From Candidatus Aminicenantes bacterium (GTDB lineage Bacteria > Acidobacteriota > Aminicenantia > Aminicenantales > Saccharicenantaceae): DNA of 64,000 bases. Every line of letters begins with the position of its first letter. The stretch's first letter is position 1. The notes under the pieces were generated by a model. The model was given only the letters and a program-made list of their open reading frames with translations. It did no database searches and was not told the DNA's origin. Below are positions 1 to 49,494 of the stretch, piece after piece. The DNA lies in contig CAVTOI010000003.1 in the NCBI GenBank assembly GCA_963736255.1, positions 1,684,400-1,748,399 on the forward strand, written 5' to 3'. Position numbers and translations under genes: made by a program.

Positions 1-16
1 GATCGGACGGCCGCCG

Positions 17-400
17 TCAGGCCCCGAGGACCTGGCAGGCCCGCTCGATGTTGGAGACGTCCATGATGATCGCGACGCCGTTCCCCTTCCGGGAGAGGGT
101 GCCATAGCAGTATTCGATGTTGATGCCTTCGTCCCCGAGCTTGGACGTGAGCTCGGCCAGGGCGCCCGGGCGGTTCTCGAGATCGACCCTGAGGACGTCG
201 CGCAGCTCGGTCGTGTAATTCAGCTTGGCCAGGAGCTTGACGGCCTTGTTGAGCTGCTGGACGACGATCTTGGCCGTGTCGTGGAAGACGCCTATCGCGT
301 CGACATTGATCTCGTTCTCGGCCAGGAAGCTGCACAGGTCCCCCAGCTGGGACGGCTTGTTCTCCAGGATGACGTAGATCTCGGTGATCCGTTCGATCAT
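17..400 (-). CDS. ACT-domain protein with two ACT repeats, likely a small regulatory or ligand-binding protein
   Basis: 127-aa ORF with two ACT-like beta-alpha-beta-beta-alpha-beta halves; sits downstream of the glcD-like gene on the same strand. Confidence 0.7.
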   Translation of the reverse strand: MIERITEIYVILENKPSQLGDLCSFLAENEINVDAIGVFHDTAKIVVQQLNKAVKLLAKLNYTTELRDVLRVDLENRPGALAELTSKLGDEGINIEYCYGTLSRKGNGVAIIMDVSNIERACQVLGA

Positions 401-482
401 GCATGACCCCCTGTCAGGTCAGGATTTCATAAACCCCTCGGCCCTATTATTAGCACGATTCCCGGTCCTGCGCAAACGGCCT

Positions 483-1901
483 TCAATCGAAGATCTTGCC
501 CGGGTTCATGATCCCGTGAGGGTCGAAGACGCGCTTGATGCCGCGCATGATCTCGATCTGCCGGTCGTCCAGGACGACCGAGAGGTAGGGCTTCTTGACC
601 AGCCCGATGCCGTGCTCGCCCGAGATGACCCCGCCGCGCGCCTTGCAGTCCCGGAAAAGCTCCTCGCGGATGCGGTCGGCGTGGGGCCGCCACTCGCTCT
701 CCGGGACGGGGACCATCGTCCCGCTCTCATAACGGGCCTTCATGATGTGGGTATGGACGTTCCCGTCGGCGGCGTGACCGAACGTCGGCAGCCACATGCC
801 GTACCGGGCCGCGACCTCACGGACCTTGTGGACGTGGCCGGCCACTTCGGCCCGGGGCACGGCGATGTCCAGGATCTCGACCGTGCCGGACTTGATGGCG
901 TCGTAGATCTTGGAGCGGATGGCCAGCACCTCGTCCTGCTTGCTGGGGGTGTCGGCGATGAAAACGTCGATGGCGCCCTTTTCGACGCAGACCTCCGCCA
1001 CGGCTTGGGACAAGCGGTCCATCTCGTCGTCCGAAGGGGCGTCGAGGATGATCAGGAGGTGGGTTTTGCCGAGCTTCGTCGGCCACTTCTTGTGGATGTG
1101 CTCCTCGGTCAAGGTGATGGGCTCGATCTCGAGGAACTCGACGGCGAGGGGGACGATGCCCCGCTTCATAATGAGGGGGACGGTCTCGAGGGCCGGCTCG
1201 AGCGCTTCGAAGGGCACAACGAGCGAGCGCATGTTGCCGGGCCTGGCCTGGAGATGCAGGACGACTTTCGTGACGACGCCGAGGGTCCCCTCCGAGCCGA
1301 CGACGAGGTGCATCAAGTTGTACCCGGTGCTCGATTTCTCGAGCTTGCCCCCCAGCCACAAGACGTCTCCCGTCGGGGTGACAAGCTCGAGCCCGCGGAC
1401 GTAGTTGCGGATGGTGCCATACTTGACGGCCCGGCTGCCCCCGGCGTTGGTGGCAACGAGGCCGCCCATCATGGCGCTTTCGTCGCCGGGGTGGGGCGGG
1501 AAGTAGAGCCCCCCCTCTTCGACCGCCTTGGTAAAATCGGAAAGGCGGACGCCGGCCTCGGTCACGGCCATCTGATTGTCGGCGTCGATCTCGAGGACAC
1601 GGCTCATCCTCTCGAGCGAGAGGACGATGCCGCCGCAGACCGGAACGCACCCGCCGCAGAGGCCCGTCGCACCGCCCCTCGGGGTCACCGGGACGCCTTG
1701 GGCATCCGCGATCCTGAGCACGGCGGCGACCTCGGCGGTCGTCCCCGGGCGGACGACCACGTCAGGCTGCCGGGCGATCTCCGCGAGCGAGAACTCGTCG
1801 TGGCCGTAATCGAAGGTCCTGTCGGCGTCGGAAAAGACGTGGCCGGGACCGACGGCCCCTTCGAGAGCGGCGCGGACGGCGGGCGTGATCTTCGAGGCCA
1901 T
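483..1901 (-). CDS. glcD: FAD-linked oxidase of the GlcD / D-lactate dehydrogenase family
   Basis: 472-aa ORF with an FAD-binding PCMH-type N-terminus (GGATGLCGG) and the C-terminal FAD-oxidase domain ending ...RVFDPHGIMNPGKIF, which is typical of GlcD/Dld. Confidence 0.85.
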   Translation of the reverse strand: MASKITPAVRAALEGAVGPGHVFSDADRTFDYGHDEFSLAEIARQPDVVVRPGTTAEVAAVLRIADAQGVPVTPRGGATGLCGGCVPVCGGIVLSLERMSRVLEIDADNQMAVTEAGVRLSDFTKAVEEGGLYFPPHPGDESAMMGGLVATNAGGSRAVKYGTIRNYVRGLELVTPTGDVLWLGGKLEKSSTGYNLMHLVVGSEGTLGVVTKVVLHLQARPGNMRSLVVPFEALEPALETVPLIMKRGIVPLAVEFLEIEPITLTEEHIHKKWPTKLGKTHLLIILDAPSDDEMDRLSQAVAEVCVEKGAIDVFIADTPSKQDEVLAIRSKIYDAIKSGTVEILDIAVPRAEVAGHVHKVREVAARYGMWLPTFGHAADGNVHTHIMKARYESGTMVPVPESEWRPHADRIREELFRDCKARGGVISGEHGIGLVKKPYLSVVLDDRQIEIMRGIKRVFDPHGIMNPGKIFD

Positions 1902-1913
1902 GGCGGACTCCTT

Positions 1914-2702
1914 TCAATCGATGCGCTTGATCTGGAGAGGCACGCCGATCATGATCTGCGGGCGCCCCTGATAGAGCTCGATGAGCCCCGACGCCTCGAT
2001 CGTCTGGCCTTCGAGATCGAGCAGGCCGGGAAGCGACCGGTAGACCTCGAGGGGGATGGCCGCGTCGAAGGCCGCGCCATCGGCCTCGAGGATGCGGAAC
2101 CCGCCGCGCCGGAACGACCGGAGGCAGCGGAAACGGACGGTCAGGAGACCTCCGACCCGTCGGCCCGCGTCCGCGGCGTCGATCACGGGATACGGCTCCC
2201 GCCCCCAAAGGCCCTTCCCGTTCTGGCGGGCTTCGGTCTCGGCCGCCTTGAGCTCCTTCCTCAGCGTCTCGTCAAAGGGGAACTTGAGGTAGGCAAAGGC
2301 ATAGCCTTCCCGGACGAGGGTCACGTTGAACACTTCGCCGTCCGGGAGGCGGACGAAGGCGAGCAGCCGTCCGTACGAATCCCTCTCTTCGGGCCCGGGA
2401 AGGAGCTCGACCTGGGCCCGGTAGAGCCGGGTGAAGGCGAACCGCTTGGCCAGGAAGGCCATGAGCCGGACGCGCTCCCGGGCGTCGTCGAGCTCCTGGC
2501 TGTCGATCCCGATGAGGCGGACCTTCTCGTTGCCGCCGCCAGCCAACCGGACCCTGATCGTGTCCCCGTCGGTGACGGCGGTCACGGTGCCTTTTAGGGT
2601 TTCCCCCGGGGCGGTGGGGGCGGGCAGGGACGCGGCCGGGAGCGCAGCTGCGGCGAGGATCACCGCGAGCGTCAGCGCAGCGGAACGGGGGCGCGTTCTC
2701 AA
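1914..2702 (-). CDS. secreted nuclease of the thermonuclease (SNase-like) family
   Basis: The C-terminal ~260 aa of ORF 1914..3236 carry a signal peptide (LTLAVILAAAALPAAS) and an SNc-like core (GDTIRV...RLIGID...). The start is placed at a TTG that overlaps the tkt stop (TTGA), so the start is uncertain. Confidence 0.65.
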   Translation of the reverse strand: MRTRPRSAALTLAVILAAAALPAASLPAPTAPGETLKGTVTAVTDGDTIRVRLAGGGNEKVRLIGIDSQELDDARERVRLMAFLAKRFAFTRLYRAQVELLPGPEERDSYGRLLAFVRLPDGEVFNVTLVREGYAFAYLKFPFDETLRKELKAAETEARQNGKGLWGREPYPVIDAADAGRRVGGLLTVRFRCLRSFRRGGFRILEADGAAFDAAIPLEVYRSLPGLLDLEGQTIEASGLIELYQGRPQIMIGVPLQIKRID

Positions 2703-4528
2703 CGGCCGCAGAGCTCCCGCGCCGCCCGGGCGATATGCGAGGCGCTGATCCCGAACCGCTCCAGGAGCTCGTCCGGCTTCCCGGAGCGGGGAAGCTCGCG
2801 GATGCAGAGGTGGCGGAGGGCCGCCTGTCCGGCCAAGGCCTGGGCGACGGCCTCGCCGAGCCCGCCGGCGGCGTAATGGTCTTCGACGACGACCGCCCGG
2901 CCGCCGGTCCCGGAGACCTCCCGCAGGATCGTGGCCTTGTCCAGGGGCGCGACCGAATACGCGTCGATAACGCGGAGGCCGAGGCCCTCCTTCTTGAGAG
3001 CCTCGAACGCCTTTAGGGCTTCGTGAACGGTGATCCCCGCGGCGATGACGGTGACCGCGTCCCCCTCCCCTTTCCGCAGCACCTTGGAGCCGCCGATGGG
3101 GAAGGTCTCGTTGGCGGGATAAAGGACCGGCGTCGCCGGGCGCGAGGCGCGGATGTAGCACATCCCTTTGTGGGCCGCGGCGGCCGCGACGCAGGCCTCC
3201 GACGAGACCGCGTCGCTCGGGTAGAGCACGACGCATCCCGGGATGGGCCGGAACATGGCCAGGTCCTCGAGACCCATCTGGGACGGCCCGTCCTCGCCGA
3301 TGCTGACCCCGACGTGAGAGCCGCAGATCTTGAGGTTGGAGAACGAGTAGGCGGCCATCCGGATCTGGTCGTGGGCCCGGGTCAGGAAGGCGGCGAAGGT
3401 GGCCATGAACGGCAGGTAGCCTTTGGCGGCGAGCCCCATGCCCACGCCGACCATGTTCTGCTCGGCGATGTAGGATTGGAAGGACCGGCCCGGGAAGGCC
3501 TCGAAGAATTTGTCGGCGTAGGTCGAGTTCTTGACGTCGCCGTCGATGGCCACGACCTTGGCGTTGACCTTGCCCAGGCTGAGCAGGGCGTTGCCGTAGG
3601 CCAGTCGCGTCGCCGTCTTCTCGGTATAGGCCGTGCGGGGGAAATCGAGGGCCGCCGCGACCTTCTTTTTGACGAAGGGCTTGGGCCTATGGACGAACCG
3701 CTTGGAATCGACGTCGGGAAGGCAGCCGGTCTCCTCGAGGGCCCGGGCCAGCTCGTCGGCCTTGAGGGGCTTGCCATGCCAGCCGTTCTTGTCCTCGATG
3801 AAGCTCACGCCCTTCCCTTTGAGCGTCCGGGCCAGGATGACCGTCGGCTGGCCCTTCTTGCCGGTTAGCTTGAGGGCCGCCAGGATCCTGTCGATCTTGT
3901 GGCCGTCGACGATGAGGGCGTCCCAGCCGAAGGCCCGGAACTTGCGGGCCAGGGCGGGGAGATCGTGCTGGTGCATGGTCCGGTCCGACTGGCCGAGCCC
4001 GTTGACATCGACGACGGCGACGAGATTGCGGAGTTTCCAACAAGCCGCGGCGGCGGCCGCCTCCCAGACCTGGCCTTCGGCGCATTCGCCGTCGCCCATG
4101 AGGACGAAGGTCCGGGCCGGGGATCTATCGAGACGCTGGGCGAGGGCCATCCCGACGCCCACGGAGAGCCCCTGACCGAGCGAGCCCGTCGCGGCCTTGA
4201 CCCAAGGCATTCGGGGGGTCGGATGGCCCTCGAGGTCGCTCGTGATCTTCCTGAGATCGAGAAGGCTCTCGAGCGGGATTATGCCGGCCTCGGCGTAGAC
4301 CGCCCAGAGGAGGGGGGCGGCATGGCCCTTGGAGAGGACGAATTCGTCGCTCCCCGGGTCGCCCGGGTCCTTGGTATTCCAGCGCATCTCCGAGAAGAAC
4401 AGGCAGGCGGCGAGGTCGGCCGCGGAGAGGCAAGTTGTCGGGTGTCCCGAGCCGGCCACGGTGGTCTGGCGCAGGGAATGGATGCGGAGGCGGGTGGCGA
4501 TTTTGCGGAGATCGTCGATCTTGGCCAT
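2699..4528 (-). CDS. tkt: transketolase
   Basis: Full-length transketolase: thiamine-diphosphate-binding region GHP...GDG, pyrimidine-binding domain and C-terminal domain. Start taken at MAKIDDL, preceded by GAGGAG. Confidence 0.9.
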   Translation of the reverse strand: MAKIDDLRKIATRLRIHSLRQTTVAGSGHPTTCLSAADLAACLFFSEMRWNTKDPGDPGSDEFVLSKGHAAPLLWAVYAEAGIIPLESLLDLRKITSDLEGHPTPRMPWVKAATGSLGQGLSVGVGMALAQRLDRSPARTFVLMGDGECAEGQVWEAAAAAACWKLRNLVAVVDVNGLGQSDRTMHQHDLPALARKFRAFGWDALIVDGHKIDRILAALKLTGKKGQPTVILARTLKGKGVSFIEDKNGWHGKPLKADELARALEETGCLPDVDSKRFVHRPKPFVKKKVAAALDFPRTAYTEKTATRLAYGNALLSLGKVNAKVVAIDGDVKNSTYADKFFEAFPGRSFQSYIAEQNMVGVGMGLAAKGYLPFMATFAAFLTRAHDQIRMAAYSFSNLKICGSHVGVSIGEDGPSQMGLEDLAMFRPIPGCVVLYPSDAVSSEACVAAAAAHKGMCYIRASRPATPVLYPANETFPIGGSKVLRKGEGDAVTVIAAGITVHEALKAFEALKKEGLGLRVIDAYSVAPLDKATILREVSGTGGRAVVVEDHYAAGGLGEAVAQALAGQAALRHLCIRELPRSGKPDELLERFGISASHIARAARELCGR

Positions 4529-4624
4529 GGTGTGATGCTCCTCAGTGATCGTGGGACATGTTCCCCGAGGGAGGCATGATAACACGAAAGCCGGAGCGGG
4601 CAAAGACGGAGCGGGGCTTGGCGC

Positions 4625-5965
4625 TCAGCGCTCGAACGGCGTGTCGGGGAAGACGATCCGCGCCGGTTTCGGCTTGTCGACGGCCGCCATACGCAAGAGA
4701 AACGTCCCGATCCCGGCGGCGCCCTGCATGTAGCCGGTCTGGGCGAAAACATAGTCGGGTCGGGTCCGGTGTTCGGCCTGGACCCAGAACATGCGGCCAT
4801 CTTCCACGGTCGCCTTGGCCAGTAGGCGCGACGCGACTCGTTTCGAGAAATCGAGATACGCCTTATCGCCGAGCTCCTTGTAGAGGTCCAGGAAGAATTC
4901 CCCCACTCCGGCCAGGCCGCAACAGATGCCGGCGTTGTTCCAGAACCCGGGGGTCTCCTGCTCGGGAATGCCGCTCTGGATGAGTCCGTTGGCGGACCTG
5001 CGGACCCAGTCGAGCCACGACGCATCGCCGGTTACGCCGGAGAGCATGAAGAACAGCCGGGCCGTGCCGACCGGACCGTGGCACCAGCCGAGATAAAAGA
5101 GGTCCCTGTTGTCGGGCTCGTCGTGAAAGACAAGACAGCTGTCCGCATCGGTTTTAGCCACCGACAGAAGATACTTCGCCCCGGCCAGGGCCGCCTCGAG
5201 GAATTCTTTTCGCCGGGTCTCTTTGTAGAGCGCGGCCAGGAAATAGGCGATCCCCGCCGTGCCGTGCGAGAAGTTCGGCATGAGCCGGGGAAAATCCGGG
5301 TCCATGGCCCACTTCAGGCCGCCGTTCTCCGGCCGCCCGAGCTCGATGAGCCGGGTCCCGGCCCGCGCGGCGAGATCGAGCCAGACCCAGTCGCCCGTTC
5401 TGCGGAATGCGTGGATCAGGAAGAGGCCGGTGCCGGCGTTGCCGCTGATGATATCGGTCGTCGGGCTCCATTCGACCCCGCTCCCGGTTGCGGCCGCGCC
5501 TGAGGCGATCCGCTCCAGACAATCGCGAAATCCGCGACGGTATTTATCATCCTTGGAAGCGTCATAGGTTTCTTCGAGAGCGAAGGCGATCCCCGAGAGA
5601 CCCTCGTAGAGGCCAAAGCTGTCGACGGAGGCGGCCCTGGCCAGGAGATGATCGGCGCCGGCCCGAGCCTGGTCGAGATAGGCGGGCTCCCCCGTTATAC
5701 CGTGGAGCTGAAGAAGGAAGAGGATGACGCCGGGGACCCCGCTGTAGAGATCCAAGCCGACGGTCTCGCTGTCCTGAGGGGTGGCCGGCCAGGACAAGCC
5801 CTCCGGGCTGCGGATCTCGACGGACTTGACCCAGGCCGCTGACTTCACCGCGGCTTCAACGTAATACCTGTCGACCCCGGGCTTGCAGGACGCTGCGGCG
5901 GAAAGGATGAGAATCCCCGCCAGCCCGTCGCGCAAGATCCTTGAAGCGTGCTTATCCTGGCACAT
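4625..5965 (-). CDS. LanC-like lipoprotein (lanthionine synthetase C-like fold)
   Basis: Lipobox LSAAASC; repeated GxxG helix-hairpin motifs plus the LanC signature triad context SHG (NFSHGTAG), WCHG (GWCHGPVG) and CxG (NAGICCGLAGVG). Confidence 0.75.
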   Translation of the reverse strand: MCQDKHASRILRDGLAGILILSAAASCKPGVDRYYVEAAVKSAAWVKSVEIRSPEGLSWPATPQDSETVGLDLYSGVPGVILFLLQLHGITGEPAYLDQARAGADHLLARAASVDSFGLYEGLSGIAFALEETYDASKDDKYRRGFRDCLERIASGAAATGSGVEWSPTTDIISGNAGTGLFLIHAFRRTGDWVWLDLAARAGTRLIELGRPENGGLKWAMDPDFPRLMPNFSHGTAGIAYFLAALYKETRRKEFLEAALAGAKYLLSVAKTDADSCLVFHDEPDNRDLFYLGWCHGPVGTARLFFMLSGVTGDASWLDWVRRSANGLIQSGIPEQETPGFWNNAGICCGLAGVGEFFLDLYKELGDKAYLDFSKRVASRLLAKATVEDGRMFWVQAEHRTRPDYVFAQTGYMQGAAGIGTFLLRMAAVDKPKPARIVFPDTPFER

Positions 5966-5981
5966 GATGCGCTCCCGGAAT

Positions 5982-7013
5982 CTACAGGATCGGCCAGGCC
6001 TTCGGCAGGAAGATCTGCTCGTAGAGGGCCATGGCGTAGCGGTCGGTCATGCCGGCGATGAAGTCCCCGGCGCGGACGATGACCGGGTCGCCCGGGGGAT
6101 AGGGGCGGATGTAGTCCTCGGGACGCTCCATGATATAGCCAAAGAGGTCGGTGATGATCTTTTCGGTCTTGCGCAGCTCGTCGCGCGCCGCCGAGTTGAA
6201 ATAGACTTTCTGATAGAGATATTCCCGGAGCTCGACGACGGCCTTCATGATCCTCTCGCTCATGGCGATCCGCTCCAGGTCTGTCGCCAGGCTGGCCTCG
6301 ACGACGTCCATGACCATCCGGTCGATCCGCGTCGCGTGCCACTTGCCCAGGACCTTGACAAGGCCGGCCGGAATGTCCTCGTCCTTGATGATCCCGGCCC
6401 GGAGGGCGTCGTCAATGTCGTGGTTGACGTAGGCGATGACGTCGGAGACGCGGACGATCTGGCCTTCGAGCGTCAAGGGCATGTCCTCGACGTCCTCGTC
6501 GAAGATCTCGCCCCGGCCTTTGGAGTGTTTCTGGATGCCGTCGCGGACTTCGAAGGTCAGGTTGAGTCCCTTGCCGTCGTACTCGAGCTTCTCGACGACG
6601 CGCAGGCTCTGGTCGGCATGGTGGAAGCCGTGCGGCAGGAGCTTTCGCAGCGTCTGCTCGCCGGCGTGGCCGAACGGGGTATGGCCGAGATCGTGGCCCA
6701 GGGCTATGGCCTCGGTCAGGTCCTCGTTGAGGCGGAGGGCCTTGGCGATCGTCCGGGCGATCTGCGAGACCTCGAGGCAATGCGTCAGCCGCGTCCGGTA
6801 GTGGTCGCCGAACGGAGAGAGGAAGACCTGGGTTTTGTGCTTGAGGCGACGGAAGGATTTCGAGTGGATGATGCGGTCGCGGTCGCGCTGGAAGTCCGTC
6901 CGCAGGACGTGCTGAGCTTCGGGGCGGACGCGGCCCCTCGACTTGGCGCTGAGGCAGGCCTTGGGCGACAGGAACTGCTGCTCGGTATTCTCCAGCTCTT
7001 CGCGGATGGTCAT
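5982..7013 (-). CDS. dgt: dGTP triphosphohydrolase-like HD-domain phosphohydrolase
   Basis: 343 aa; HD motif ([10 protein letters not shown]...[11 protein letters not shown]) with the architecture of short Dgt-like dNTPases. Confidence 0.85.
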
Positions 7014-7065
7014 CGATTCTCTCCCCGGACGCGGCCGATTATAGCAGACGGGGGGCGTCGGGCGC

Positions 7066-7169
7066 CAGCCAAGACGGGGTCAAACCTTAATTCTTATAAT
7101 TTTATCCCCCGCCGATTGATAGCAATCCTAAGTTGCCAGGAAAAATTATAAGAATTAAGGTTTGACCCC
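7066..7169. repeat. AT-rich perfect hairpin: 28-bp stem, 48-nt loop, termini GGGGTCAAACCT / AGGTTTGACCCC
   Basis: Arm 7066-7093 is the exact reverse complement of arm 7142-7169. It lies between the divergent dgt and yggS starts and shares its termini with the hairpin at 50081-50172. Confidence 0.8.
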
Positions 7170-7189
7170 TTCTTTGATAAAATGAAGCG

Positions 7190-7852
7190 ATGAGCGGAAC
7201 GATCGCCTCGAACGTCAAGGCCATCCTGGCGGAGCTGCCGCCGGGGGTCGAGCTCGTCGCCGCGGCCAAGACCCGCTCCGCCGCCGAGATCCTCGAAGCC
7301 GTCGACGCGGGCGTCAAGACGATCGGCGAGAACTACGTCCAGGAGGCGGACGTCGTCTTCTCTGCCGTCGGCCATCGGGCCCGCTGGCATTTCATCGGCC
7401 ATCTCCAGACGAACAAAGCCAAGAAGGCCGTTGAGATCTTCGACCTCGTCGAGACCGTGGACTCGATCGCGCTCGGACGCGAGCTCGACAAGCGCGCAGC
7501 GGCGGCCGGAAAGACGATGGAGGTCCTGGTCGAGGTCAACAGCGGCCGCGAGCCCCAGAAAGCCGGCGTGATGCCCGACGAAGCGGAAGCCGTGGTCCGA
7601 TCCCTCGCAGCCCTGCCCCACCTTCGCGTCCTTGGCCTCATGACCATGGGCCCGTTCGAAGGCGATCCCGAGGATTCGCGGCCTTATTTCAAGGAGACGA
7701 AGCGCGTCTGGGACACGGTCAAGGCCCTGGCCATCCCCGGCGTCGAGATACGGCATTTATCCATGGGCATGTCCCATTCTTGGAAGATCGCCATCGAAGA
7801 GGGGGCCACCATGGTCCGCATCGGAACGGCCATCTTCGGACCGCGTCCCTAG
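7190..7852 (+). CDS. yggS: YggS-family pyridoxal-phosphate homeostasis protein
   Basis: 220 aa; alanine-racemase N-terminal-like PLP barrel (AAKTRS...IGHLQTNK...). Confidence 0.9.
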   Translation: MSGTIASNVKAILAELPPGVELVAAAKTRSAAEILEAVDAGVKTIGENYVQEADVVFSAVGHRARWHFIGHLQTNKAKKAVEIFDLVETVDSIALGRELDKRAAAAGKTMEVLVEVNSGREPQKAGVMPDEAEAVVRSLAALPHLRVLGLMTMGPFEGDPEDSRPYFKETKRVWDTVKALAIPGVEIRHLSMGMSHSWKIAIEEGATMVRIGTAIFGPRP

Positions 7853-7873
7853 CCGAGATCATTCACGAGACTG

Positions 7874-7907
7874 AGAAAACCGGCGTTTTTATGAATAGTC
7901 CAGGCTA
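7874..7907 (-). other. 3'-UTR element beginning at the rmuC stop codon (TAGCCTGGaCtATTCATAAAAACGCCGGTTTTCTC), also found after the OMP gene at 22049
   Basis: ~34 of 35 nt identical to 22049-22083 on the opposite strand. In both places it begins exactly at a TAG stop codon. Confidence 0.55.
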
Positions 7908-9140
7908 GTCCGGCTGTTCCTTGTCTTCGCCCGCCCCGAGCACGATGATCTCGGCGTCGCAAACGGCCGGTTCGGTCCCAATGCCCTTCAGCTGCTGCAG
8001 GTCCTCGATCTTCTGGATGGACTTGTCCAGCTTGTCGTGGCGCGTCGTCGTCATCTTCCGGTATTCCTCCCGGGCGCCGTCGAGCTTCTCCCCCATCTTG
8101 GACATGGACTCCGCGAACTTCTCCCATTCCTTCTTGAAGCCCTTGACGAGCCCCAGGATCTCGCCGGCCGTCTTCTCCATGCTGAAGTTGTCGAGCGACT
8201 GGCGGATGATGGCCAGGATGGCGAACAGGGTGAACGGCGAGCAGAGGATGACCTTGTTCTTGAGGGCCTCGTCCATGAGCCCCGGGTCGTTCTGGTTGAT
8301 GAAGGCGTAGACCTGCTCGTTGGGGATGAAGACGAGGACATAATCGAGCGTCTGCTCCTCCGGGTTGATGTAGTCCCGAGTCGTGACCTCCTTGATCCGC
8401 GTCCGGACGTCCCGGAGGAACTGCGTCCTGTGGGTCTCCCGGGCCGTATCGCTGTCGGACTCGAGATAGCGGAGGTAGCTGTTGAGGGGGAACTTGACGT
8501 CCATGTTGACCTTCAGGCCCTGCGGCAGCCAGAAGGTGTAGTCAGGCCGCGAGGCGGCCATGTCGAGGACCGTCTGTTTGATGTAGTTGACGCCTTCGAT
8601 GAAGCCGGCCAGCCGCAGGACGTCCTCGGCCATCCGTTCGCCCCACTGGCCGCGGGCCTTGGTGCTGACCAGAGCCTGGCGGAGGTGGTCGGCCGTGTCC
8701 TGGAGCCGCGACGTCTCCCGGGCTGCGGTCTTCAGCTGGACGTCCAACTCCCCGTATTGGCGGGACCGCTCGCTTTCGAAGCGCGACACGAGCTCCTGCA
8801 TCTTGTGGATGTCGCCCTTCATGGTCGCGAGGTTCTGGTCGATGAGCTGCTTCTTTGTCTCCAGGTCTTTCTCGCCGAGGTGGACCCGGCCGTCGAGGTT
8901 CTCCCGGGCCAGCTTGAGGAGCTCGTCCGTGCTGGCCTTGAGCGCGTCCTGCGACAGGGCCCCGAAGCTGTCCCTGACCCTGCCCATGAGGGCCTCGAGG
9001 TCCTGGACCTTTTCAGCCTCGGTCTCGCTGACCAGGGCCCGGGCGATCTCCCGCGAGTCCTTCTTCCGAAGGACATGGACGATGAGCACGACCAGGGCGC
9101 CGAAGACGACGCCGCCCGCGAAAAGCAGGATCTCAGTCAT
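7905..9140 (-). CDS. rmuC: DNA recombination protein RmuC
   Basis: 411 aa; N-terminal TM helix, long coiled-coil and RmuC C-terminal domain. Confidence 0.85.
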   Translation of the reverse strand: MTEILLFAGGVVFGALVVLIVHVLRKKDSREIARALVSETEAEKVQDLEALMGRVRDSFGALSQDALKASTDELLKLARENLDGRVHLGEKDLETKKQLIDQNLATMKGDIHKMQELVSRFESERSRQYGELDVQLKTAARETSRLQDTADHLRQALVSTKARGQWGERMAEDVLRLAGFIEGVNYIKQTVLDMAASRPDYTFWLPQGLKVNMDVKFPLNSYLRYLESDSDTARETHRTQFLRDVRTRIKEVTTRDYINPEEQTLDYVLVFIPNEQVYAFINQNDPGLMDEALKNKVILCSPFTLFAILAIIRQSLDNFSMEKTAGEILGLVKGFKKEWEKFAESMSKMGEKLDGAREEYRKMTTTRHDKLDKSIQKIEDLQQLKGIGTEPAVCDAEIIVLGAGEDKEQPD

Positions 9141-9489
9141 CGTCGCCCCCCTCGCCGGCTTCCTCGTCCCGCTCCGCGTCCTCCACGGCCTTGTCGACTT
9201 CTTCTTCGAAGGACTCGCCGGCCTCCTCCCCCATCTCCTTGCCCATTCTCTTCATCCAGCGGGCGACGCTTTTCGGATCGTTCTCGTCGAGCCCGCTCAA
9301 GGCGGACGGATCGGCCAGGCCCTCGAGCCGGCTTTCCTCGGACTTCCTGACGGCGACGCGCGAGACGAGCTTGGTCAGGTTCCGGCCGCCGCAGTGGCTG
9401 CAGACCGGATCGACAGCCACGCTCACCGCGAGCGTCACCACCGTCGTCTTCCTGCGGCAGTCGGCGCAGCGGTATTCGTAGATCGGCAT
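9133..9489 (-). CDS. FmdB-family zinc-ribbon protein
   Basis: MPIYEYRCADC...CSHCGG CxxC/CxxC ribbon followed by an acidic tail. Confidence 0.7.
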   Translation of the reverse strand: MPIYEYRCADCRRKTTVVTLAVSVAVDPVCSHCGGRNLTKLVSRVAVRKSEESRLEGLADPSALSGLDENDPKSVARWMKRMGKEMGEEAGESFEEEVDKAVEDAERDEEAGEGGDDD

Positions 9490-10398
9490 CTAGATCAGGA
9501 TCCCCTCGTCCCAGCCGAGCTTGACCAGCTCGATGCGGGCCGGGTCGCTCACGCCCAGATGATGGCGCGTGTCGGCCAGCTGGATGTGGTGCGGCGTCAT
9601 AGGGAGGGGCCGATCGTCGCCGAAGAAGGCCTTCCGCTTGGCCTGGATGATGCGCAAGCCCGTGGCGTCGGCCGCGACCGGGTCCCGGCTGACGATGAGG
9701 CCTTTGTACTCCCAAACGTATTCCTTGGCGTAGTTGTGCGGCCCGACGCTGTTGAAAAGCGGCGTGAACATGACCAGCACGTTAAGCCGGGTCTTGCCCT
9801 TGACCTCGGGCAGGCTCCAGATCGTGGCCAGGTCGGCGCAGGTGTCGCCGTGGTAGGCCGAGGGCTGGGGCACGAACATGATGTAGTTCTTGATCAGGCT
9901 GCCCACGCCCGACCAATGGTGGCTGCGCATCGGCCTGGCGTTGATGAGGGCCGTGGACTTCTGGAACACGGGATTACGGAGGACGCCGCGGTCGTCGATG
10001 CCGATCCTGTCCTCGGCGACGCCGGCGTCCATGACCCTCCGTTTGAGGGCCTGTTCGACCTCGGCCGTCGTCGGGATGTAGCGCCAGGCGTTCGTCTTGA
10101 TGCCGACAACATCCTCGGGCCTTATGAGCGTCTTCCAGGCCTTGGCGATGTCCTTCTCGCCGAGCAGGGCCCGGACGGCGTCGTCGAGCATCCTCTGGAC
10201 GACTTCGGCCGGCGGCGCGCCGCCCGAACCGAGCGGCGACGGATCGCGGACAAGCACGACTCGGACCTTTTCTTCCGCTGCGCCCGCCGCCTTCGACGGT
10301 CCCGGCGCTCCCTTGAGCGCGGGAACGAGCGCCCCGGCCAGCGGCGCCGCGGACGCGACCTTCAGGAAATCCCGGCGCGTGATCGTTCTGTTGCTCAT
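9490..10398 (-). CDS. Tat-secreted protein of unknown function, possibly DUF362-like
   Basis: Twin-arginine signal RRDFLKVASAAPLAGA; no recognisable catalytic motif; 4-bp overlap with the upstream gene. Confidence 0.6.
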   Translation of the reverse strand: MSNRTITRRDFLKVASAAPLAGALVPALKGAPGPSKAAGAAEEKVRVVLVRDPSPLGSGGAPPAEVVQRMLDDAVRALLGEKDIAKAWKTLIRPEDVVGIKTNAWRYIPTTAEVEQALKRRVMDAGVAEDRIGIDDRGVLRNPVFQKSTALINARPMRSHHWSGVGSLIKNYIMFVPQPSAYHGDTCADLATIWSLPEVKGKTRLNVLVMFTPLFNSVGPHNYAKEYVWEYKGLIVSRDPVAADATGLRIIQAKRKAFFGDDRPLPMTPHHIQLADTRHHLGVSDPARIELVKLGWDEGILI

Positions 10399-11327
10399 CG
10401 TTCTTTCCTCCCATCGGCGGACTTGGCCAACAGGGCCTCGAAGGCATCCAGGCGCTTGCCGGCCTTACCTTCACTCTCTTCATCGAAGACGACGGCGACA
10501 TGCCGGCCGCGGATGCGCACGGCCGTCCACTTGCCGTTCTCTGCCTTGACCTCGGCCTTCCCGCCGGCGTCGGGCATGTAGGCCCCGGCGAATGATGCAC
10601 CGGCCCTGCCCGCTTGGCCGGGATCGGCGTATTCGACGACGAGGAGCCGGCTCCGGCCGCTGCCGCTTCCCTTGTATTCGGCCAGGACCGCGGCGGCCGT
10701 CTGCCCGAGGAGCAGGATGTCCGCGTCGGCGACGAAGAAATGATAGTTGAGTACCGAGTGATTGTGGAAGAAGCGGACGCGCCCCGCCTCCACTCCCTCG
10801 GACGGCAGGAGCTTCAGCAGGCCGGGTTTCGGCCCCTCGCCGGGGATCGCTGCGGCGATGGCCCGGCCCAGCTCGAGCACCAGTTCCTTCGTCTCGGCGG
10901 TCTCCTCCTCGGCATAGACCGACAGGAAATAGCGGTCCTTCCAGAACGACAGGAGCCCGGCCTTGTACGTCGAACCCTGGCCGACCGCCGCGTCATCCCC
11001 GTCGAGGTCATGGGTGAAGACGCCGAAGGCATCCTCGGACGACCCCATGTCGAAGGCGTCCACCACCACGTCGGGCTTGCCGTCCTTGTGGAACCGGCGG
11101 GCCACGAGGATCTTCATATTGTAGGACCGGTAGACCTCGCCGGCCCCGTCGATGTAGTCGAAGATCGTCTCCGCATCGAAGACCTGGTCGGCCTCGGAGA
11201 GCCAAGGTCCGGCCGCCGTCGGGACATAGGAAGCGAGGACGCGGGCGTCGGGAGCTTTGGGTTGGCTCATCAGGGCGGGTCCTCCTAACCAGGCCAGGGC
11301 GGCGGCGAGAACGACGACCTTCTTCAT
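10395..11327 (-). CDS. secreted hypothetical protein
   Basis: Start chosen at MKKVVVLAAALAWLGG, a signal peptide, inside ORF 10395..11396; translationally coupled to the 9490..10398 gene. Confidence 0.55.
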   Translation of the reverse strand: MKKVVVLAAALAWLGGPALMSQPKAPDARVLASYVPTAAGPWLSEADQVFDAETIFDYIDGAGEVYRSYNMKILVARRFHKDGKPDVVVDAFDMGSSEDAFGVFTHDLDGDDAAVGQGSTYKAGLLSFWKDRYFLSVYAEEETAETKELVLELGRAIAAAIPGEGPKPGLLKLLPSEGVEAGRVRFFHNHSVLNYHFFVADADILLLGQTAAAVLAEYKGSGSGRSRLLVVEYADPGQAGRAGASFAGAYMPDAGGKAEVKAENGKWTAVRIRGRHVAVVFDEESEGKAGKRLDAFEALLAKSADGRKER

Positions 11328-11437
11328 TCCGCCCGATTGTACCATGCCCTTTCCGGAGTGACAAGGAAACGAACCGGGCGCCGCCTGCGTTTGCAAATTA
11401 GGAGCATTCCGTGAATAATATCCCGCAGGAGAGATGT

Positions 11438-12805
11438 ATGTCTGAGCGCCACTCGTTCGTTCCCGCCCTGATCGTCCTGGCCCTGGCCGTCATTCTCGGC
11501 GCGTGTTCCGCCAATAAGGACGGAGACGTGGTGACGCCGGTCGACATCCCCGCCGCTTCGATGTCCTATATCGTTCTCGCCTGGAGCGAGACGGGCATGC
11601 ATTTCATGAACCCGACCTATACCGCCGAGGTCCTCAGCCCCCCCTACAACACCATCCTCGCCCAAGTCGTCAGGCGGGGCGACCCGCCCGAGATCGTGAC
11701 GACCGGCGTCACGCTGGAATACACGATCGTCGGCAATACCTATTCGTATGGCAAGTCCACGGCCGCCCCCGACCCGGTCCGCGCCTACGCGCCCTTCTGG
11801 GACAATTCCCTCACTCTCTTCGGCGTCGACCTCGTCCATGACACCGGCCTCAATTTCGTCGATCCGGGCGTCCACAACGGCCTCTCCGGAACGATGCTCC
11901 TCAAGGGGGACCGCTTCGAGGTCGACGGCGTCCCGGTCGTCCCGATCACGGACCCGACGGTCGCGAACCCGGCGGGGGTCTGGGACCCCTATCAGGTCGC
12001 GGAGATCACGGTGCGCGACGCCACGACCGACGAAGTGCTGGCCACGACCCGTACGACCGTGGAAACCTCCGACGAGATCAACTGCGCCAAATGCCACGGT
12101 CAGACGGTCAACGACGTGGAGATCGGCTCCGTCCTTAGCGAGCACGACGAATCCCACGAGACGACGTTCGCCGCCGACGGCCAACCCGTGTTCTGCGCCT
12201 CGTGCCACGACAGTCTCGCCCTGGGGCGGACGGGCTCGACCACGGCGGAGGAGACCTTCTCCTACGCCATCCACATCTTCCACTACGATCAGACGATCGC
12301 CTGTTACGACTGCCATCCCGGAGCCACGACCAAGGCGAACCGGAGTACGGCGCACACGGCGGACGACGGCAGCTGCACGAACTGCCACGGCAACCTGACC
12401 AACCTGGCCGCCACCATCGCCGGCGGCCGCGTGCCCTGGCAGAACGAGCCCAAGTGCGTCGATTGCCACACCTTCGTGGCCGAGGTCGACACGGGGACGG
12501 CCCTGTACCGGAACGGCGTGGGCCACGGCGATCTGTCTTGCCCGGCCTGCCACGGACCGGCGCACGCCCAGGTCCCCTCCGGCAAGGATTCGGATAACTA
12601 CCAGGCAGTGCAGTACCAGAGCAAGGCCCTCTCGATCGGCAGCTGCAGGGTCTGCCACAGTACCGCAAAGGGTGGCGGATTATTGGGCGTCGTCGATGCC
12701 CACGGCGGCAGCCGGCCGACGGCCTGCACGGTCTGTCACACGGGGCCGATCACGACGACCAACCCCCTGCATTTTCCCCATCGGTTCCAGCACCGGGACC
12801 GCTGA
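11438..12805 (+). CDS. octaheme c-type cytochrome lipoprotein
   Basis: Lipobox LGACS. Eight CxxCH motifs: CAKCH, CASCH, CYDCH, CTNCH, CVDCH, CPACH, CRVCH, CTVCH. RBS AGGAGAG lies before the ATG at 11438. Confidence 0.85.
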   Translation: MSERHSFVPALIVLALAVILGACSANKDGDVVTPVDIPAASMSYIVLAWSETGMHFMNPTYTAEVLSPPYNTILAQVVRRGDPPEIVTTGVTLEYTIVGNTYSYGKSTAAPDPVRAYAPFWDNSLTLFGVDLVHDTGLNFVDPGVHNGLSGTMLLKGDRFEVDGVPVVPITDPTVANPAGVWDPYQVAEITVRDATTDEVLATTRTTVETSDEINCAKCHGQTVNDVEIGSVLSEHDESHETTFAADGQPVFCASCHDSLALGRTGSTTAEETFSYAIHIFHYDQTIACYDCHPGATTKANRSTAHTADDGSCTNCHGNLTNLAATIAGGRVPWQNEPKCVDCHTFVAEVDTGTALYRNGVGHGDLSCPACHGPAHAQVPSGKDSDNYQAVQYQSKALSIGSCRVCHSTAKGGGLLGVVDAHGGSRPTACTVCHTGPITTTNPLHFPHRFQHRDR

Positions 12806-21190: not shown

Positions 21191-22051
21191 ATGACCAGGA
21201 AGCTCGCGTCGCTTTTTGCCCTATTCCTCCTCGTCGGGACCTCCGGTTCTCTCGCCGCGGCCGACATCCGGTTCGAGCTCGGCTTCGGCTGGACCCTGGT
21301 CGCTCCGACCATGAACGCGACCTACGTCAACCAATACCAGCCGACGCTCACACCCCTGGACCGCTACATCGCCAGCGCCGCAGACCAGACGGTCCGTTTC
21401 AAGGCCAAGACGACCTACGGCATGAACGGGTTTTTCAATGTCCTGTTCACGGAGAACGTCGGGCTTCAGGTCCTCGCGGACTACCATCGTCCGGGCATCG
21501 GCGGCTCGAACGCGCCCTATCTCATCGAAATGCAGTTCCGGACCTTCGGTGACACGGTCGAGACGTATGCCCGGTCAGTCCCCTGGGACAACTCGGTCGG
21601 GAATCTCACCGAGACGACGTTCAGTCTCAACGCCCTGGCCCGCTTCCGCGTCGCCGACACGCTCTCGCTGAGCGTTTCGGCCGGGCCGAGCGTTTTCCAT
21701 TTCGAAGGCAAGACCGGCCACATCGGCTACACCTACTTCGACCTCGCCCTCGTCGGAGAGCAGTATCAGCTGACCGGCGGGACCTATCGCATGGTCGTCG
21801 AATTCGGCCCGCAGACGAAGTACGGCATGAACGTGGGCGTCGAGGCGGCCTACGAGGCCTTCCGCCACGTCATCCTGGCCCTCGACCTGCGCTGGTACGG
21901 CGCCGCCAAGACGAACCTGCCGCTCCACATCGTCGAAGACGATATCATCACGGTCCCCCTCGACCAGATCGAGCAGACGATCGGCCTGGGGGGCTTGAGC
22001 GTGAATCCGTCCTATATCCGGGCTGGACTGGCCCTCCGCTTCGTCTTCTAG
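21191..22051 (+). CDS. outer-membrane beta-barrel protein
   Basis: Signal peptide, alternating amphipathic strands and a C-terminal Phe (...ALRFVF); preceded by TTGACA..TAGGCT and an AAGGAGG RBS. Confidence 0.65.
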
Positions 22052-31386: not shown

Positions 31387-31531
31387 GTTCCTCGGACTCC
31401 CGGCCTGACCGCTCGTTTTGCGGCCTTCGGCCTTTCGTTCCGTCCGTGATGTTATCATAATCGCCCCGGCTGTCCGGACCCCTTTTTTGACAAGGATTTT
31501 CGTTCTGAATTATCATAGGCCCCGATCGATC

Positions 31532-42116: not shown

Positions 42117-42176
42117 TGGCCTCGTTATAACGCCGGCATCCAGGGGTGTCAATCAAGGCGGAGGGCGACAATATTA

Positions 42177-45431: not shown

Positions 45432-45458
45432 GATCCTCTCCTCCGCTCTCCCCTGCTC

Positions 45459-47722: not shown

Positions 47723-47736
47723 GCCTTGGCGCCCTG

Positions 47737-49397: not shown

Positions 49398-49402
49398 AGT
49401 TT
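49370..49402. promoter_or_regulatory. probable TetR operator, imperfect palindrome AAACTATGGAAAC-N7-GTTTTCACAGTTT, next to a TATAAT box
   Basis: The two 13-nt half-sites match at 11 of 13 positions as reverse complements and overlap the 5' end of the tetR-efflux operon. Confidence 0.5.
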
Positions 49403-49494
49403 TATTATAGGCCCGGATCGCCCTTTGTCAAGCGCGTTCCCCATCCCGGTATCGACGGCCCGATCTGGTCCTGTGCTATCATGATGTCACCTCG

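Follow-up and report, generated by a model that had tools for sequence, protein, structure and literature searches.

A putative lipoprotein of the LanC superfamily encoded outside any lanthipeptide gene context in Aminicenantes

A LanC-like gene between dgt and tkt

The locus lies on the minus strand of the window (the whole 64 kb stretch of DNA that was analysed) and holds a stand-alone gene for a LanC-like protein, with dgt directly upstream and tkt downstream (Table 1). The open reading frame has exactly the boundaries given in the preliminary description, and its reality was confirmed by the ATG start, a Shine-Dalgarno sequence, a Pfam LANC_like match and a GC3 of 0.81, which is typical for real genes of the window (66% GC). 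The product is 100% identical to database protein P0001, and its close homologues (67–100% identity) are nearly all 446 aa long. The dgt stop codon (TAG) occupies positions 5982–5984, leaving 16 nt between the two genes, and because this gap is so short, dgt and the LanC-like gene are likely co-transcribed. The ATG of tkt (position 4528) is accompanied by a ribosome-binding site (GAGGAG) and is separated from the LanC-like gene by 96 nt. Both neighbours had been named correctly from the sequence, as judged by NCBIfam equivalog matches. An Rfam scan of positions 1–12000 returned nothing at E ≤ 0.1.

Table 1 Coordinates of the features at the locus (positions in the window).
Feature	Position	Strand	Basis or remark
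tkt (transketolase), downstream	2699..4528	-	NCBIfam equivalog, 867 bits (cutoff 488)
Promoter-like site between LanC-like gene and tkt	4576-4603		
Stand-alone LanC-like lipoprotein gene, 446 aa	4625..5965, including stop codon	-	ORF with ATG start
Family-conserved blocks, HMMER-unaligned to any solved LanC-type structure	4634..4945	-	Family alignment
C-terminal FPDTPF block	4634-4651	-	
QTGYMQGAAG block	4712-4741	-	
AEHRTRPD block	4754-4777	-	
FWNN block	4934-4945	-	
CCG (348-350), Cys348 and Cys349 predicted zinc ligands 2 and 3	4916..4924	-	LANCL1 alignment
WCHG (294-297), Cys295 predicted zinc ligand 1, His296 of enolate-stabilising type (LanCL/ProcM)	5075..5086	-	LANCL1 alignment
SHG (233-235), His234 predicted general acid/base	5261..5269	-	LANCL1 alignment
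DIISG motif, Asp171 probable partner of catalytic His	5441..5455	-	Profile alignment; at least 90% conserved
Signal peptide (residues 1-26) and lipobox Cys27 (AAS-C), predicted lipidation site	5885..5965	-	Sequence; homologue conservation
Shine-Dalgarno GGGAG	5972..5976	-	Sequence inspection; 6 nt 5' of ATG at 5965
dgt (dGTP triphosphohydrolase), directly upstream	5982..7013	-	NCBIfam equivalog, 515.9 bits (cutoff 393)

Superfamily membership and predicted fold

Judged by profile searches and a predicted structure, the protein belongs to the LanC superfamily, as had been proposed from its motifs. Pfam LANC_like (PF05147) matched it full length, in a single stretch from residue 69 to 431 that corresponds to profile positions 3–342 of 350 (E = 3.8e-46, 157.7 bits, cutoff 23.2). 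The best NCBIfam matches were the cyclase domains of LanL (6e-53) and LanM (7e-48). The LanL, LanM and LanKC models (180 bits with a cutoff of 650, 163 with 304 and 129 with 575, respectively) were matched only through their C-terminal cyclase parts (for LanL, for example, positions 481–846 of 851), and the LanL and LanM scores fall far under the whole-protein cutoffs since our protein lacks the dehydratase parts. A family profile searched against the PDB ranked CuvL first (1e-23), followed by LANCL1 (1.6e-21), LANCL2 (7e-21) and NisC (1.7e-13).

In the AlphaFold model (pLDDT 95, pTM 0.91) the mature domain comprises 14 helices, a high-confidence prediction of a LanC-type seven-hairpin alpha/alpha toroid. 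Seven GxxG caps, at G76, G122, G175, G235, G297, G350 and G415, immediately precede the starts of helices and are wholly or almost invariant. With this model as Foldseek query, ranks 1–20 were all LanC-type.

The preliminary description had left room for a related six-hairpin glycosidase-like fold. We considered a glycoside hydrolase or lyase of GH127-, GH88- or GH76-like type, possibly with a cysteine nucleophile held by zinc, as in GH127. The zinc site of GH127 consists of Cys3 plus Glu, and weak local Pfam matches to GH127 (32 bits), GH88, GH76 and pectate lyase, GH76 proteins and sugar epimerases from Foldseek rank 21 onwards, and a GH29 fucosidase domain fused to one family member all point in this direction. 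However, the GH127 match spans 34 residues (347–380 versus profile positions 173–206) and contains no stretch that passes individually, the scores for GH88 (18.3 bits) and GH76 (14.2 bits) stay under their cutoffs, far from the LANC_like score, and GH127 is absent among the 50 Foldseek matches listed. TM-scores for such folds are about 0.50 (GH76, TMq 0.50 at rank 21) versus 0.63–0.69 for LanC-type structures, the hairpins number seven rather than six, and the alignment with LANCL1 covers the acid/base His of LanC as well as the three zinc-ligand positions. The GH127/GH88 reading was discarded on the grounds of profile, fold and number of hairpins, and we regard a six-hairpin enzyme of any of these types as extremely unlikely.

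Catalytic residues and a predicted all-cysteine zinc site

By alignment, the residues for LanC-type chemistry are all present and conserved, namely the D171/H234 pair, C295, H296, C348 and C349. D171 aligns with the Glu of LANCL1 'NEMLYG' in the profile alignment and, like H234, is at least 90% conserved; NisC, CylM and CuvL, all of them Zn-dependent cyclases, are described as keeping a His-Asp pair (PMC11330476). H234 aligns with His219 in 'aaHGLAG' of LANCL1, where this residue serves as the acid in enolate protonation (PMC9934072), and SHG is found in 119 of 120 close homologues. WCHG aligns with the WCHG of LANCL1 (Cys276 and His277, the latter involved in enolate stabilisation; PMC9934072) and is kept in all 120 close homologues and in 126 of 150 representatives.

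The motif set listed from the sequence (GxxG repeats, SHG, WCHG and CCG) was thus complete, with one amendment: CCG differs from the canonical third LanC motif, CHG, of which it is, on the aligned sequences, a Cys3 zinc-site variant. It aligns with LANCL1 'GLCHGSAG' (Cys322 and His323), with Cys349 in place of the canonical His ligand, and the suggested check of the zinc ligands came out in favour of a LanC-type site, as C295, C348 and C349 line up with the LANCL1 zinc-ligand positions. CCG occurs in 120/120 close homologues; among the representatives with a detectable motif it was scored in 117 and CHG in 1 (117/118 scorable). Conservation of the motifs in a 72-sequence family alignment was at least 90%. 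CCG has been reported for ProcM-type LanMs, in which the all-cysteine zinc site is associated with broad substrate tolerance (PMC10027976).

Family-specific C-terminal blocks

In the region of the family-conserved blocks, W342, N344, W394, E398, R400, P403, Q409, Q414, P440 and D441 are at least 90% conserved, and the FWNN, AEHRTRPD, QTGYMQGAAG and FPDTPF blocks are candidate substrate-binding determinants. CuvL has an alignment gap opposite the AEHRTRPD block and its RTRPDYV stretch. Two of the five glutathione (GSH) residues of LANCL1 are replaced (His274 by Gly293 and His323 by Cys349), and the HMMER alignment to LANCL1 in the region of Arg364, Asp367 and Glu374 did not extend into the C-terminal block. 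By eye, HRTRPD...QGAAG resembles CRTPD...EGMAG of LANCL1, a likeness without HMMER statistical support.

These blocks bear on a zinc-thiolate enzyme of the alkyl- or prenyl-transfer type. Such an enzyme would rely on the conserved zinc site and acid/base residue as well, but its Zn(Cys)3-activated thiol would attack a different kind of electrophile, for instance a lipid, a quinone or an epoxide. Thiol-alkylating enzymes typically have Cys-rich zinc sites, and the barrel of LanC is similar to the beta subunit of protein farnesyltransferase. That FWNN, AEHRxxPD and QTGxMQG are unaligned to LanC and LanCL structures suggests a different substrate, and the gene adjoins those for an acyl-CoA synthetase and a PMT-type glycosyltransferase in Thermoanaerobaculia. 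However, no prenyltransferase or terpene-cyclase Pfam match was obtained at E ≤ 0.1, and the protein keeps His296, whose LANCL1 equivalent stabilises the enolate of a Michael acceptor. To our knowledge, the characterised relatives all perform thia-Michael addition, and we consider alkyl or prenyl transfer unlikely.

A lipoprotein signal and predicted export in most of the family

The N-terminus reads MCQDKHASRILRDGLAGILILSAAAS followed by C27, with the basic residues K5, R9 and R12 preceding a hydrophobic stretch and AAS-C27, and thus shows the basic n-region, hydrophobic h-region and Cys-terminated lipobox of bacterial lipoproteins (signal peptidase II substrates). The protein had been called a lipoprotein at the outset, and this assignment stands: a Cys is found at positions 12–40 in 112 of 120 close homologues. 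The lipobox-type Cys is kept in the clade with variants such as AASC, VASC, LMSC and LATC, and residues 9–25 form a separate N-terminal helix in the AlphaFold model. The -3 residue of the lipobox is Ala, which is allowed, though not the commonest.

Signal calls were made with our own heuristics rather than with SignalP or LipoP. On this scoring, an export signal is present in 115 of 120 close homologues and in at least 107 of 150 diverse representatives, some of which carry clear twin-arginine motifs; about one quarter of the representatives scored without one, partly from start-codon or heuristic errors. Lipobox, Sec or Tat signals are thus, as far as sequences can tell, a trait of most of the family and not just of this protein. 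Export is not universal, since relatives from Streptomyces, Nonomuraea and Mesobacillus (33–39% identity) are without a signal peptide.

A few family members are fused to other domains, i.e., CARDB (n = 3), HZS_alpha (n = 1) and GH29 (n = 1), all of extracytoplasmic types, and neither a kinase nor a dehydratase was found among the fused partner domains. Putative Rosetta-stone fusions were uninformative: the N-terminal extensions of P0126, P0224, P0251, P0213, P0143 and P0255 are linkers, mis-called starts before Tat signals or contig-edge fragments. A correlation between the AEHR..PD block and the export signal was too noisy for use. One Streptomyces relative without a signal peptide has a version of this block.

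Genomic context

The 64 kb window yielded no gene for LanB (Lant_dehydr), LanM (DUF4135-type dehydratase), a kinase/lyase or a C39 transporter. A search for a precursor-like small ORF was negative as well; the largest nearby intergenic gap is 176 nt and holds no Cys/Ser/Thr-rich ORF. The lack of a lanthipeptide context that had been noted at this locus extends to its relatives, as no LanB-, LanM- or kinase-like family recurs across 80 related loci. The survey of orthologue neighbourhoods that had been proposed gave neighbours that vary with lineage: dgt adjoins the gene in 7 of the 80 loci and tkt in 5, in close Aminicenantes relatives only, whereas the neighbours elsewhere are an acyl-CoA synthetase and PMT_2 in Thermoanaerobaculia and ribosomal L21/L27 in other Acidobacteriota. 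When the neighbours from all 80 loci were clustered de novo, no family-wide partner gene emerged. A functional link to tkt, dgt or SNase was discarded, given that the adjacency is confined to close Aminicenantes relatives, and the tkt/dgt adjacency is a conserved gene order within Aminicenantes without functional meaning at the family level.

PADLOC gave no defence-system match, which leaves a role in defence unsupported. A mobile-element search returned one unannotated phage-collection match together with plasmid matches to distant Gram-positive LanC or LanM proteins, and a mobile-element role was dismissed on this basis.

The complete LanC catalytic set would also fit an ordinary class I LanC with genes for its LanB dehydratase and LanA precursor at another site in the genome, and unclustered lanthipeptide genes are known in the case of proteases (PMC8960859). 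Several observations run against it. The lipoprotein signal would take the protein out of the cytoplasm, the compartment in which LanB and tRNA-dependent dehydration work, and the residue after the first zinc Cys is His, versus the Tyr that predominates in stand-alone LanCs (PMC9934072). LanL and LanCL score closer than NisC, and the gene has a conserved housekeeping synteny at 67–100% identity across many species, with neither a LanB-like partner recurring in the 80 loci nor a precursor-like small ORF in the window. We consider a class I LanC very unlikely.

The protein could instead serve mainly in binding, either as an immunity-like envelope lipoprotein, trapping lanthipeptides or other peptides from outside, or as a periplasmic Cys3 metal binder. 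The lantibiotic immunity proteins NisI and SpaI are lipoproteins, LanCL proteins were for years described solely as binding proteins, and the 80 loci yielded no gene for an enzymatic partner or a substrate. However, H234, D171 and H296 are conserved besides the metal ligands in very divergent members, which argues for catalysis, and neither the PADLOC result nor the stable housekeeping synteny, as opposed to variable islands, favours such a role. A protein devoted mainly to binding is, in our judgement, quite unlikely.

A large stand-alone bacterial family

The protein is a member of a large uncharacterised stand-alone bacterial family, of which 543 clusters were recovered at E ≤ 1e-30 from Acidobacteriota, Gemmatimonadota, Planctomycetota and other phyla, with cytoplasmic relatives in Actinomycetota and Bacillota. 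Among 12,705 RefSeq LanC-like proteins, Walker et al. (2020, BMC Genomics) found 3,052 without LanB, LanM or a kinase within seven genes, and 1,392 of these stayed unexplained and were set aside undescribed as 'unclassified' (PMC7268733). Like the protein at this locus, that set consists of LanC-like Pfam matches lacking LanB, LanM or a kinase nearby. In literature searches, with most subscription journals outside their scope, we found no work on exported, lipoprotein or other non-lanthipeptide bacterial LanC-like proteins, and no earlier report of the export signals, the CCG/WCHG signature or the phylum distribution of the family.

Comparison with characterised LanC-type proteins

CuvL, a class IV LanL of Thermomonospora curvata (PDB 8CAR/8CAV), is the best match in both sequence and structure (Foldseek E = 7e-13). 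It shares the CCG zinc motif; it also depends on Zn and keeps the His-Asp pair (PMC11330476). In contrast to CuvL, a cytoplasmic lyase-kinase-cyclase fusion of 865 aa that acts on a leader-bearing precursor, the protein described here is a single domain of 446 aa with a lipoprotein signal and without kinase, lyase or precursor, and it has WCHG where CuvL has FCQG.

LanCL1 and LanCL2 are likewise stand-alone single-domain proteins outside lanthipeptide synthesis, with Foldseek TM-scores of 0.64–0.67 (query) and 0.70–0.73 (target). They have WCHG too, the residue after the first zinc Cys in LanCLs being always His (PMC9934072), and their catalytic His and zinc-ligand positions align with those of our protein. 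Identity is 17–19%, however, and LanCLs are cytosolic, whereas this protein carries an export and lipid-anchor signal; the third zinc ligand of LanCL1, His323, also contacts GSH and is Cys349 here.

ProcM-type LanMs have the same all-cysteine zinc site with CCG for CHG (PMC10027976) and His after the first zinc Cys (PMC9934072), but ProcM itself is a cytoplasmic protein of about 1000 aa that carries a dehydratase domain at its N-terminus and has dozens of precursors encoded in the genome. NisC, SpaC and MadC are stand-alone proteins too, about 400–450 aa long, and share the toroid and the zinc/His architecture; they differ in being cytoplasmic, in adjoining LanB, LanA and LanT, and in having CHG and mostly Tyr after the first zinc Cys, and NisC (see the PDB search above) is a weaker profile match than LanL or LanCL.

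Proposed function and implications

Taken together, we propose, with a probability of about 0.55, that the gene encodes an exported, lipid-anchored LanC-superfamily protein that would carry out zinc-dependent thiol addition of the thia-Michael type without acting as a lanthipeptide cyclase. Thiol addition to electrophiles had been suggested in the preliminary description and stays the best reading of the chemistry; we infer it from conserved residues only, as the searches brought up neither a substrate nor a thiol donor nor a partner gene. Following export and lipidation at Cys27, the protein would face the periplasm, where a Cys3 zinc site is unusual given the oxidising conditions. The Zn(Cys)3 centre would bind and activate a substrate thiol (a small thiol or the cysteine of a peptide or protein), and the thiolate would add to an electrophilic carbon, most probably a Michael acceptor of the dehydroalanine or dehydrobutyrine type. 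By analogy with LANCL1 and ProcM, His296 may stabilise the enolate, and His234 may protonate it. The reaction would leave a thioether on a substrate in the envelope or periplasm, serving in capping or cross-linking and not in the building of a lantibiotic.

More tentatively, zinc-dependent thia-Michael chemistry could be a shared activity of envelope LanCL-like enzymes in diderm phyla (Acidobacteriota including Aminicenantes, Gemmatimonadota, Planctomycetota, Armatimonadota and some Bacteroidota), a generalisation that is possible and still rather doubtful. These enzymes might cap or cross-link dehydroalanine and dehydrobutyrine arising in exported proteins or, alternatively, neutralise incoming electrophilic peptides such as lantibiotics, thiopeptides and microcystin-type toxins.

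The known roles of LanC-type proteins are those of cytoplasmic lanthipeptide cyclases and of cytosolic eukaryotic LanCLs, which clear dehydroamino acids from the proteome with glutathione. Eukaryotic LanCLs group with the class IV clade. About one quarter of bacterial LanC-like proteins fit neither known role and are 'unclassified' (PMC7268733), and the locus offers a clean handle on one large part of this set. The family also matters for genome mining, as its genes are named lanthipeptide synthetase though they lie outside any biosynthetic cluster. If active, the protein would bring thioether-forming or electrophile-quenching chemistry to the bacterial envelope, with a bearing on envelope protein damage control, on resistance to dehydroamino-acid-containing antibiotics and toxins, and on the evolutionary origin of the eukaryotic LanCLs. 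Should the envelope activity hold across the diderm phyla, it would represent a compartment and a physiological role so far undescribed for the LanC superfamily.

A solitary LanC-like gene between dgt and tkt

The ORF agreed exactly in position, strand and length with its preliminary description, with an ATG start. A GGGAG Shine-Dalgarno sequence lies 6 nt 5' of this ATG, the GC3 of 0.81 is that expected of real genes in this window (GC 66%), and the product is 100% identical to a database protein (P0001). More than 100 homologues (67–81% identity; source names Aminicenantes or Acidobacteriota) are nearly all 446 aa long. Together, the ribosome-binding site, GC3 and these >100 length-conserved homologues identify it as a genuine gene on which purifying selection is strong. 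The neighbours named earlier were also found, with the dgt stop codon only 16 nt upstream and a 96-nt gap with a promoter-like site before the tkt ATG (4528). No Rfam element was found at E≤0.1 in a scan around the gene (window positions 1-12000).

The order dgt, LanC-like gene, tkt and nuclease-like gene (SNase) was kept in relatives with 70–75% identity, even where outer flanks differed. In a set of 80 genome loci drawn from different species, the LanC-like gene adjoined dgt just 7 times and tkt just 5 times, always in close Aminicenantes relatives. De novo clustering of neighbours in these loci revealed no family-wide partner; the biggest cluster was an upstream acyl-CoA synthetase in Thermoanaerobaculia-type loci, and others were ribosomal L21/L27, ECF sigma factors, BNR/sortilin proteins and TonB-type barrels. 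In Thermoanaerobaculia-type Acidobacteriota (loci L045, L049, L050, L051 and L061) the synthetase-like gene precedes the LanC-like gene on the same strand, and a PMT_2 family glycosyltransferase also lies ahead of it in several such loci. This neighbourhood is lineage-specific and may point to a connection with envelope lipids or glycans.

A Pfam scan of all sizeable genes of the 64 kb window detected housekeeping and general metabolism genes (among others FAD oxidase, SNase, tkt, dgt, YggS, RmuC, multihaem cytochrome, acetyl-CoA synthetase-like, POR, FolD, PFK, P-type ATPase, RuvB, QueA, glycosidases and an efflux system), and no LanB, LanM, kinase/lyase or C39 transporter. No plausible precursor ORF was found in the intergenic gaps (≤176 nt) near the LanC-like gene, so the reported absence of lanthipeptide genes nearby held in both the Pfam and small-ORF checks. 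The protein had no PADLOC match. We conclude that the gene is solitary, chromosomal and stably inherited, and lies outside any biosynthetic cluster or defence island.

Fold and predicted zinc site

Pfam LANC_like matched along its whole profile length (E 3.8e-46, 157.7 bits; cutoff 23.2). The NCBIfam LanL, LanM and LanKC models matched through their C-terminal cyclase domains only, far under their whole-protein cutoffs, which identifies the protein as a LanC domain on its own. With the 72-sequence family alignment as input, AlphaFold2 gave a very confident model (mean pLDDT 95, pTM 0.91). The mature domain in this model comprises 14 helices, and seven invariant or nearly invariant GxxG motifs each stand immediately ahead of a helix start, which indicates a seven-hairpin LanC-type toroid in the predicted structure.

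A six-hairpin glycosidase-like fold had been raised as an alternative, to be favoured if profiles preferred a glycoside hydrolase. Weak Pfam glycosidase matches do occur, and we interpret them as generic alpha/alpha-hairpin likeness: the GH127 match spans only 34 residues, with no stretch passing alone, and GH88 and GH76 score under their cutoffs. The top 20 Foldseek matches in the PDB were exclusively LanC-type (CuvL, LanCL2, LicM2, MadC, LanCL1, NisC, GCR2 and ThurKC), GH76 mannanases, whose TM-scores were lower, began at rank 21, and none of the 50 matches listed was GH127. On these results, with seven predicted hairpins rather than six, we reject the glycosidase reading. The LanC-like assignment stands, and every sequence and fold criterion places the protein in the LanC-like superfamily.

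Searched against the PDB, the family profile retrieved CuvL (class IV; 1e-23), LANCL1 (1.6e-21), LANCL2 (7e-21), NisC (1.7e-13) and also GCR2. In the LANCL1 alignment H234 falls on the catalytic His219 ('aaHGLAG'), C295-H296 on the WCHG residues Cys276 and His277, and C348-C349 on Cys322 and His323 ('CH' in GLCHGSAG). The zinc-ligand check proposed in the preliminary description thus supports a predicted LanC zinc site, with Cys in place of His as third ligand. WCHG and CCG were present in 120/120 close homologues, and diverse representatives had CCG in 117 cases versus CHG in 1. CCG has been reported in the substrate-tolerant ProcM-type LanMs (PMC10027976), and the CuvL sequence also shows it. 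LanCLs and ProcM likewise have His directly following their first zinc Cys, a position mostly occupied by Tyr in stand-alone bacterial LanCs (PMC9934072).

Predicted export and family breadth

The N-terminus (MCQDKHASRILRDGLAGILILSAAAS, then C27) runs from basic residues through a hydrophobic core to a lipobox-type Cys that is shared by 112/120 close homologues, bearing out the earlier lipoprotein claim. Searching 1.84 billion cluster representatives returned 7,388 relatives, 543 at E≤1e-30. Of the best 150, almost every one is a stand-alone protein 400–500 aa long (34–51% identity), and a simple heuristic predicted export signals in at least 107 (~22 lipobox, 65 Sec-like, 22 Tat), several negatives being Tat signals missed by the pattern (e.g., SRRELL, TRRDFL, RRRDFL...LLGC). 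Such Tat signals would be consistent with metal being bound before export. Domains fused to multi-domain members were of extracytoplasmic types (CARDB, n = 3; HZS_alpha, n = 1; GH29 fucosidase, n = 1), and no kinase or dehydratase fusion was found among them.

Export is not universal. Streptomyces, Nonomuraea and Mesobacillus relatives (33–39% identity) lack a signal peptide, align across the whole mature domain and retain CCG. In the annotated Mesobacillus and Streptomyces records the LanC-like genes are solitary, with no lanthipeptide neighbours. One 15.9-kb human faecal contig, recorded as 'Bacteriophage sp.' and carrying no annotation, also encodes a LanC-like protein.

Proposed activity

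By analogy with LANCL1 (PMC9934072), from which residue roles were assigned, zinc binding and catalysis are predicted, and we infer periplasmic Zn-dependent thiol addition. Export and lipidation at Cys27 would leave the toroid facing the periplasm, where the Zn(Cys295, Cys348, Cys349) centre would bind and activate a substrate thiolate. Addition of the thiolate to a Michael acceptor (Dha or Dhb being the likeliest) would give an enolate stabilised by His296 and protonated by His234, which Asp171 would orient. An all-Cys zinc site has been linked to broad substrate tolerance (PMC10027976). Four blocks conserved across the family (FWNN, AEHRxxPD, QTGxMQGAAG, FPDxPF), which HMMER left unaligned to solved LanC-type structures, probably define the substrate. 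The LANCL1 glutathione contacts His274 and His323 are not kept in the profile alignment, and HMMER gave no alignment across the rest of that pocket; glutathione specifically is thus unsupported as thiol donor.

Other features of the window

The GH20 and GH95 genes both look frameshifted, whether through pseudogene formation or through indel errors in the assembly; the syntenic locus L004 carries an intact 799-aa orthologue. Immediately 3' of tkt, the nuclease-like gene has a PADLOC match, to candidate defence protein C3a212 'SNc+LTD' (E 8e-26), and in relatives there is a 4-nt overlap between it and the tkt stop codon; an ORF listed at 1914-3236 is this gene over-extended into tkt. dgt matches the PADLOC dGTPase model, yet passes the NCBIfam housekeeping dgt equivalog. 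The multihaem cytochrome, conserved in L004 beside DUF6599 and DUF362 genes, may be an extracellular electron-transfer component. The efflux-type cluster was rejected as a lanthipeptide exporter, its transporter being of a generic type and not C39-peptidase.

Coordinates of features in the window and in relatives
Feature	Location	Strand	Description
LanC-like gene	4625..5965	minus	446 aa
Staphylococcal-nuclease-like gene	~1914-2702	minus
Multihaem c-type cytochrome	11411-12805	plus	464 aa; several CxxCH; MtrC/MtrF-like, c7, c3 Pfam matches
ORF	21191-22051	plus	286 aa; coding-like GC3; no Pfam family at thresholds used
ORF	29035-31458	minus	807 aa; coding-like GC3; sub-threshold Rcc01698_C match only
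ORF	35825-37126	minus	433 aa; coding-like GC3; no Pfam family at thresholds used
GH20, first ORF	37269-38570	plus	profile 1-160
GH20, overlapping ORF	38164-39099	plus	profile 156-347
GH95, second piece	39624-40304	minus	catalytic 296-408 + C-domain
GH95, first piece	40852-42507	minus	N-domain + catalytic 2-71
Efflux-type cluster	42177-50073 (range includes the OmdA/YdeI gene)	minus	TetR regulator, HlyD adaptor, ABC ATPase, outer-membrane efflux protein, fused ABC-ATPase/ABC-2 permease (1084 aa)
OmdA/YdeI 'bacteriocin-protection' family protein	49495-50073	plus	after efflux-type cluster
ORF	51572-52261	minus	229 aa; coding-like GC3; no Pfam family at thresholds used
Neighbourhood with long-chain acyl-CoA synthetase-like gene (AMP-binding), L045	7923-9845
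LanC-like gene, L086, Mesobacillus foraminis	7905-9233		stand-alone, CCG-type
LanC-like gene, L087, Streptomyces sp. NBC_00984	7917-9158		stand-alone, CCG-type
LanC-like gene, L088, Nonomuraea gerenzanensis	~8001-9188		stand-alone, CCG-type
LanC-like protein, MT835884.1 (H16)	12842-14020		30.6% identity over 85% of length, E 6e-47

Relationship to known LanC-type systems

LanL cyclase domains and LanCLs are the systems that the protein resembles most. CuvL, the best PDB profile match, shares its CCG, whereas LANCL1 has His323 as third zinc ligand where this protein has Cys349. Human LanCLs fall in the class IV clade of Walker et al. (PMC7268733), who left 3,052/12,705 bacterial LanC-like proteins 'unclassified', 1,392 of them unexplained. 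A class I cyclase is rejected, as the protein has a predicted export signal, no LanB/LanA nearby and His, not Tyr, following its first zinc Cys; a class II–IV synthetase is rejected by the lack of a dehydratase or kinase domain, and a eukaryotic-type LanCL by the differing third ligand and compartment and a GSH pocket that is not demonstrably present. No description of an exported or lipoprotein LanC-like family was found in the literature searched, the coverage of which was incomplete. Because orphan LanC-like proteins are already known, the protein is not surprising in kind; we rate its family as an exported LanC-superfamily branch that is well defined, widespread and uncharacterised. The predicted envelope location, three-Cys site, strong conservation and breadth offer a concrete entry to the role of non-lanthipeptide bacterial LanC-like proteins, and the cultured Gram-positive Mesobacillus, Streptomyces and Nonomuraea carriers make the function of the family tractable.
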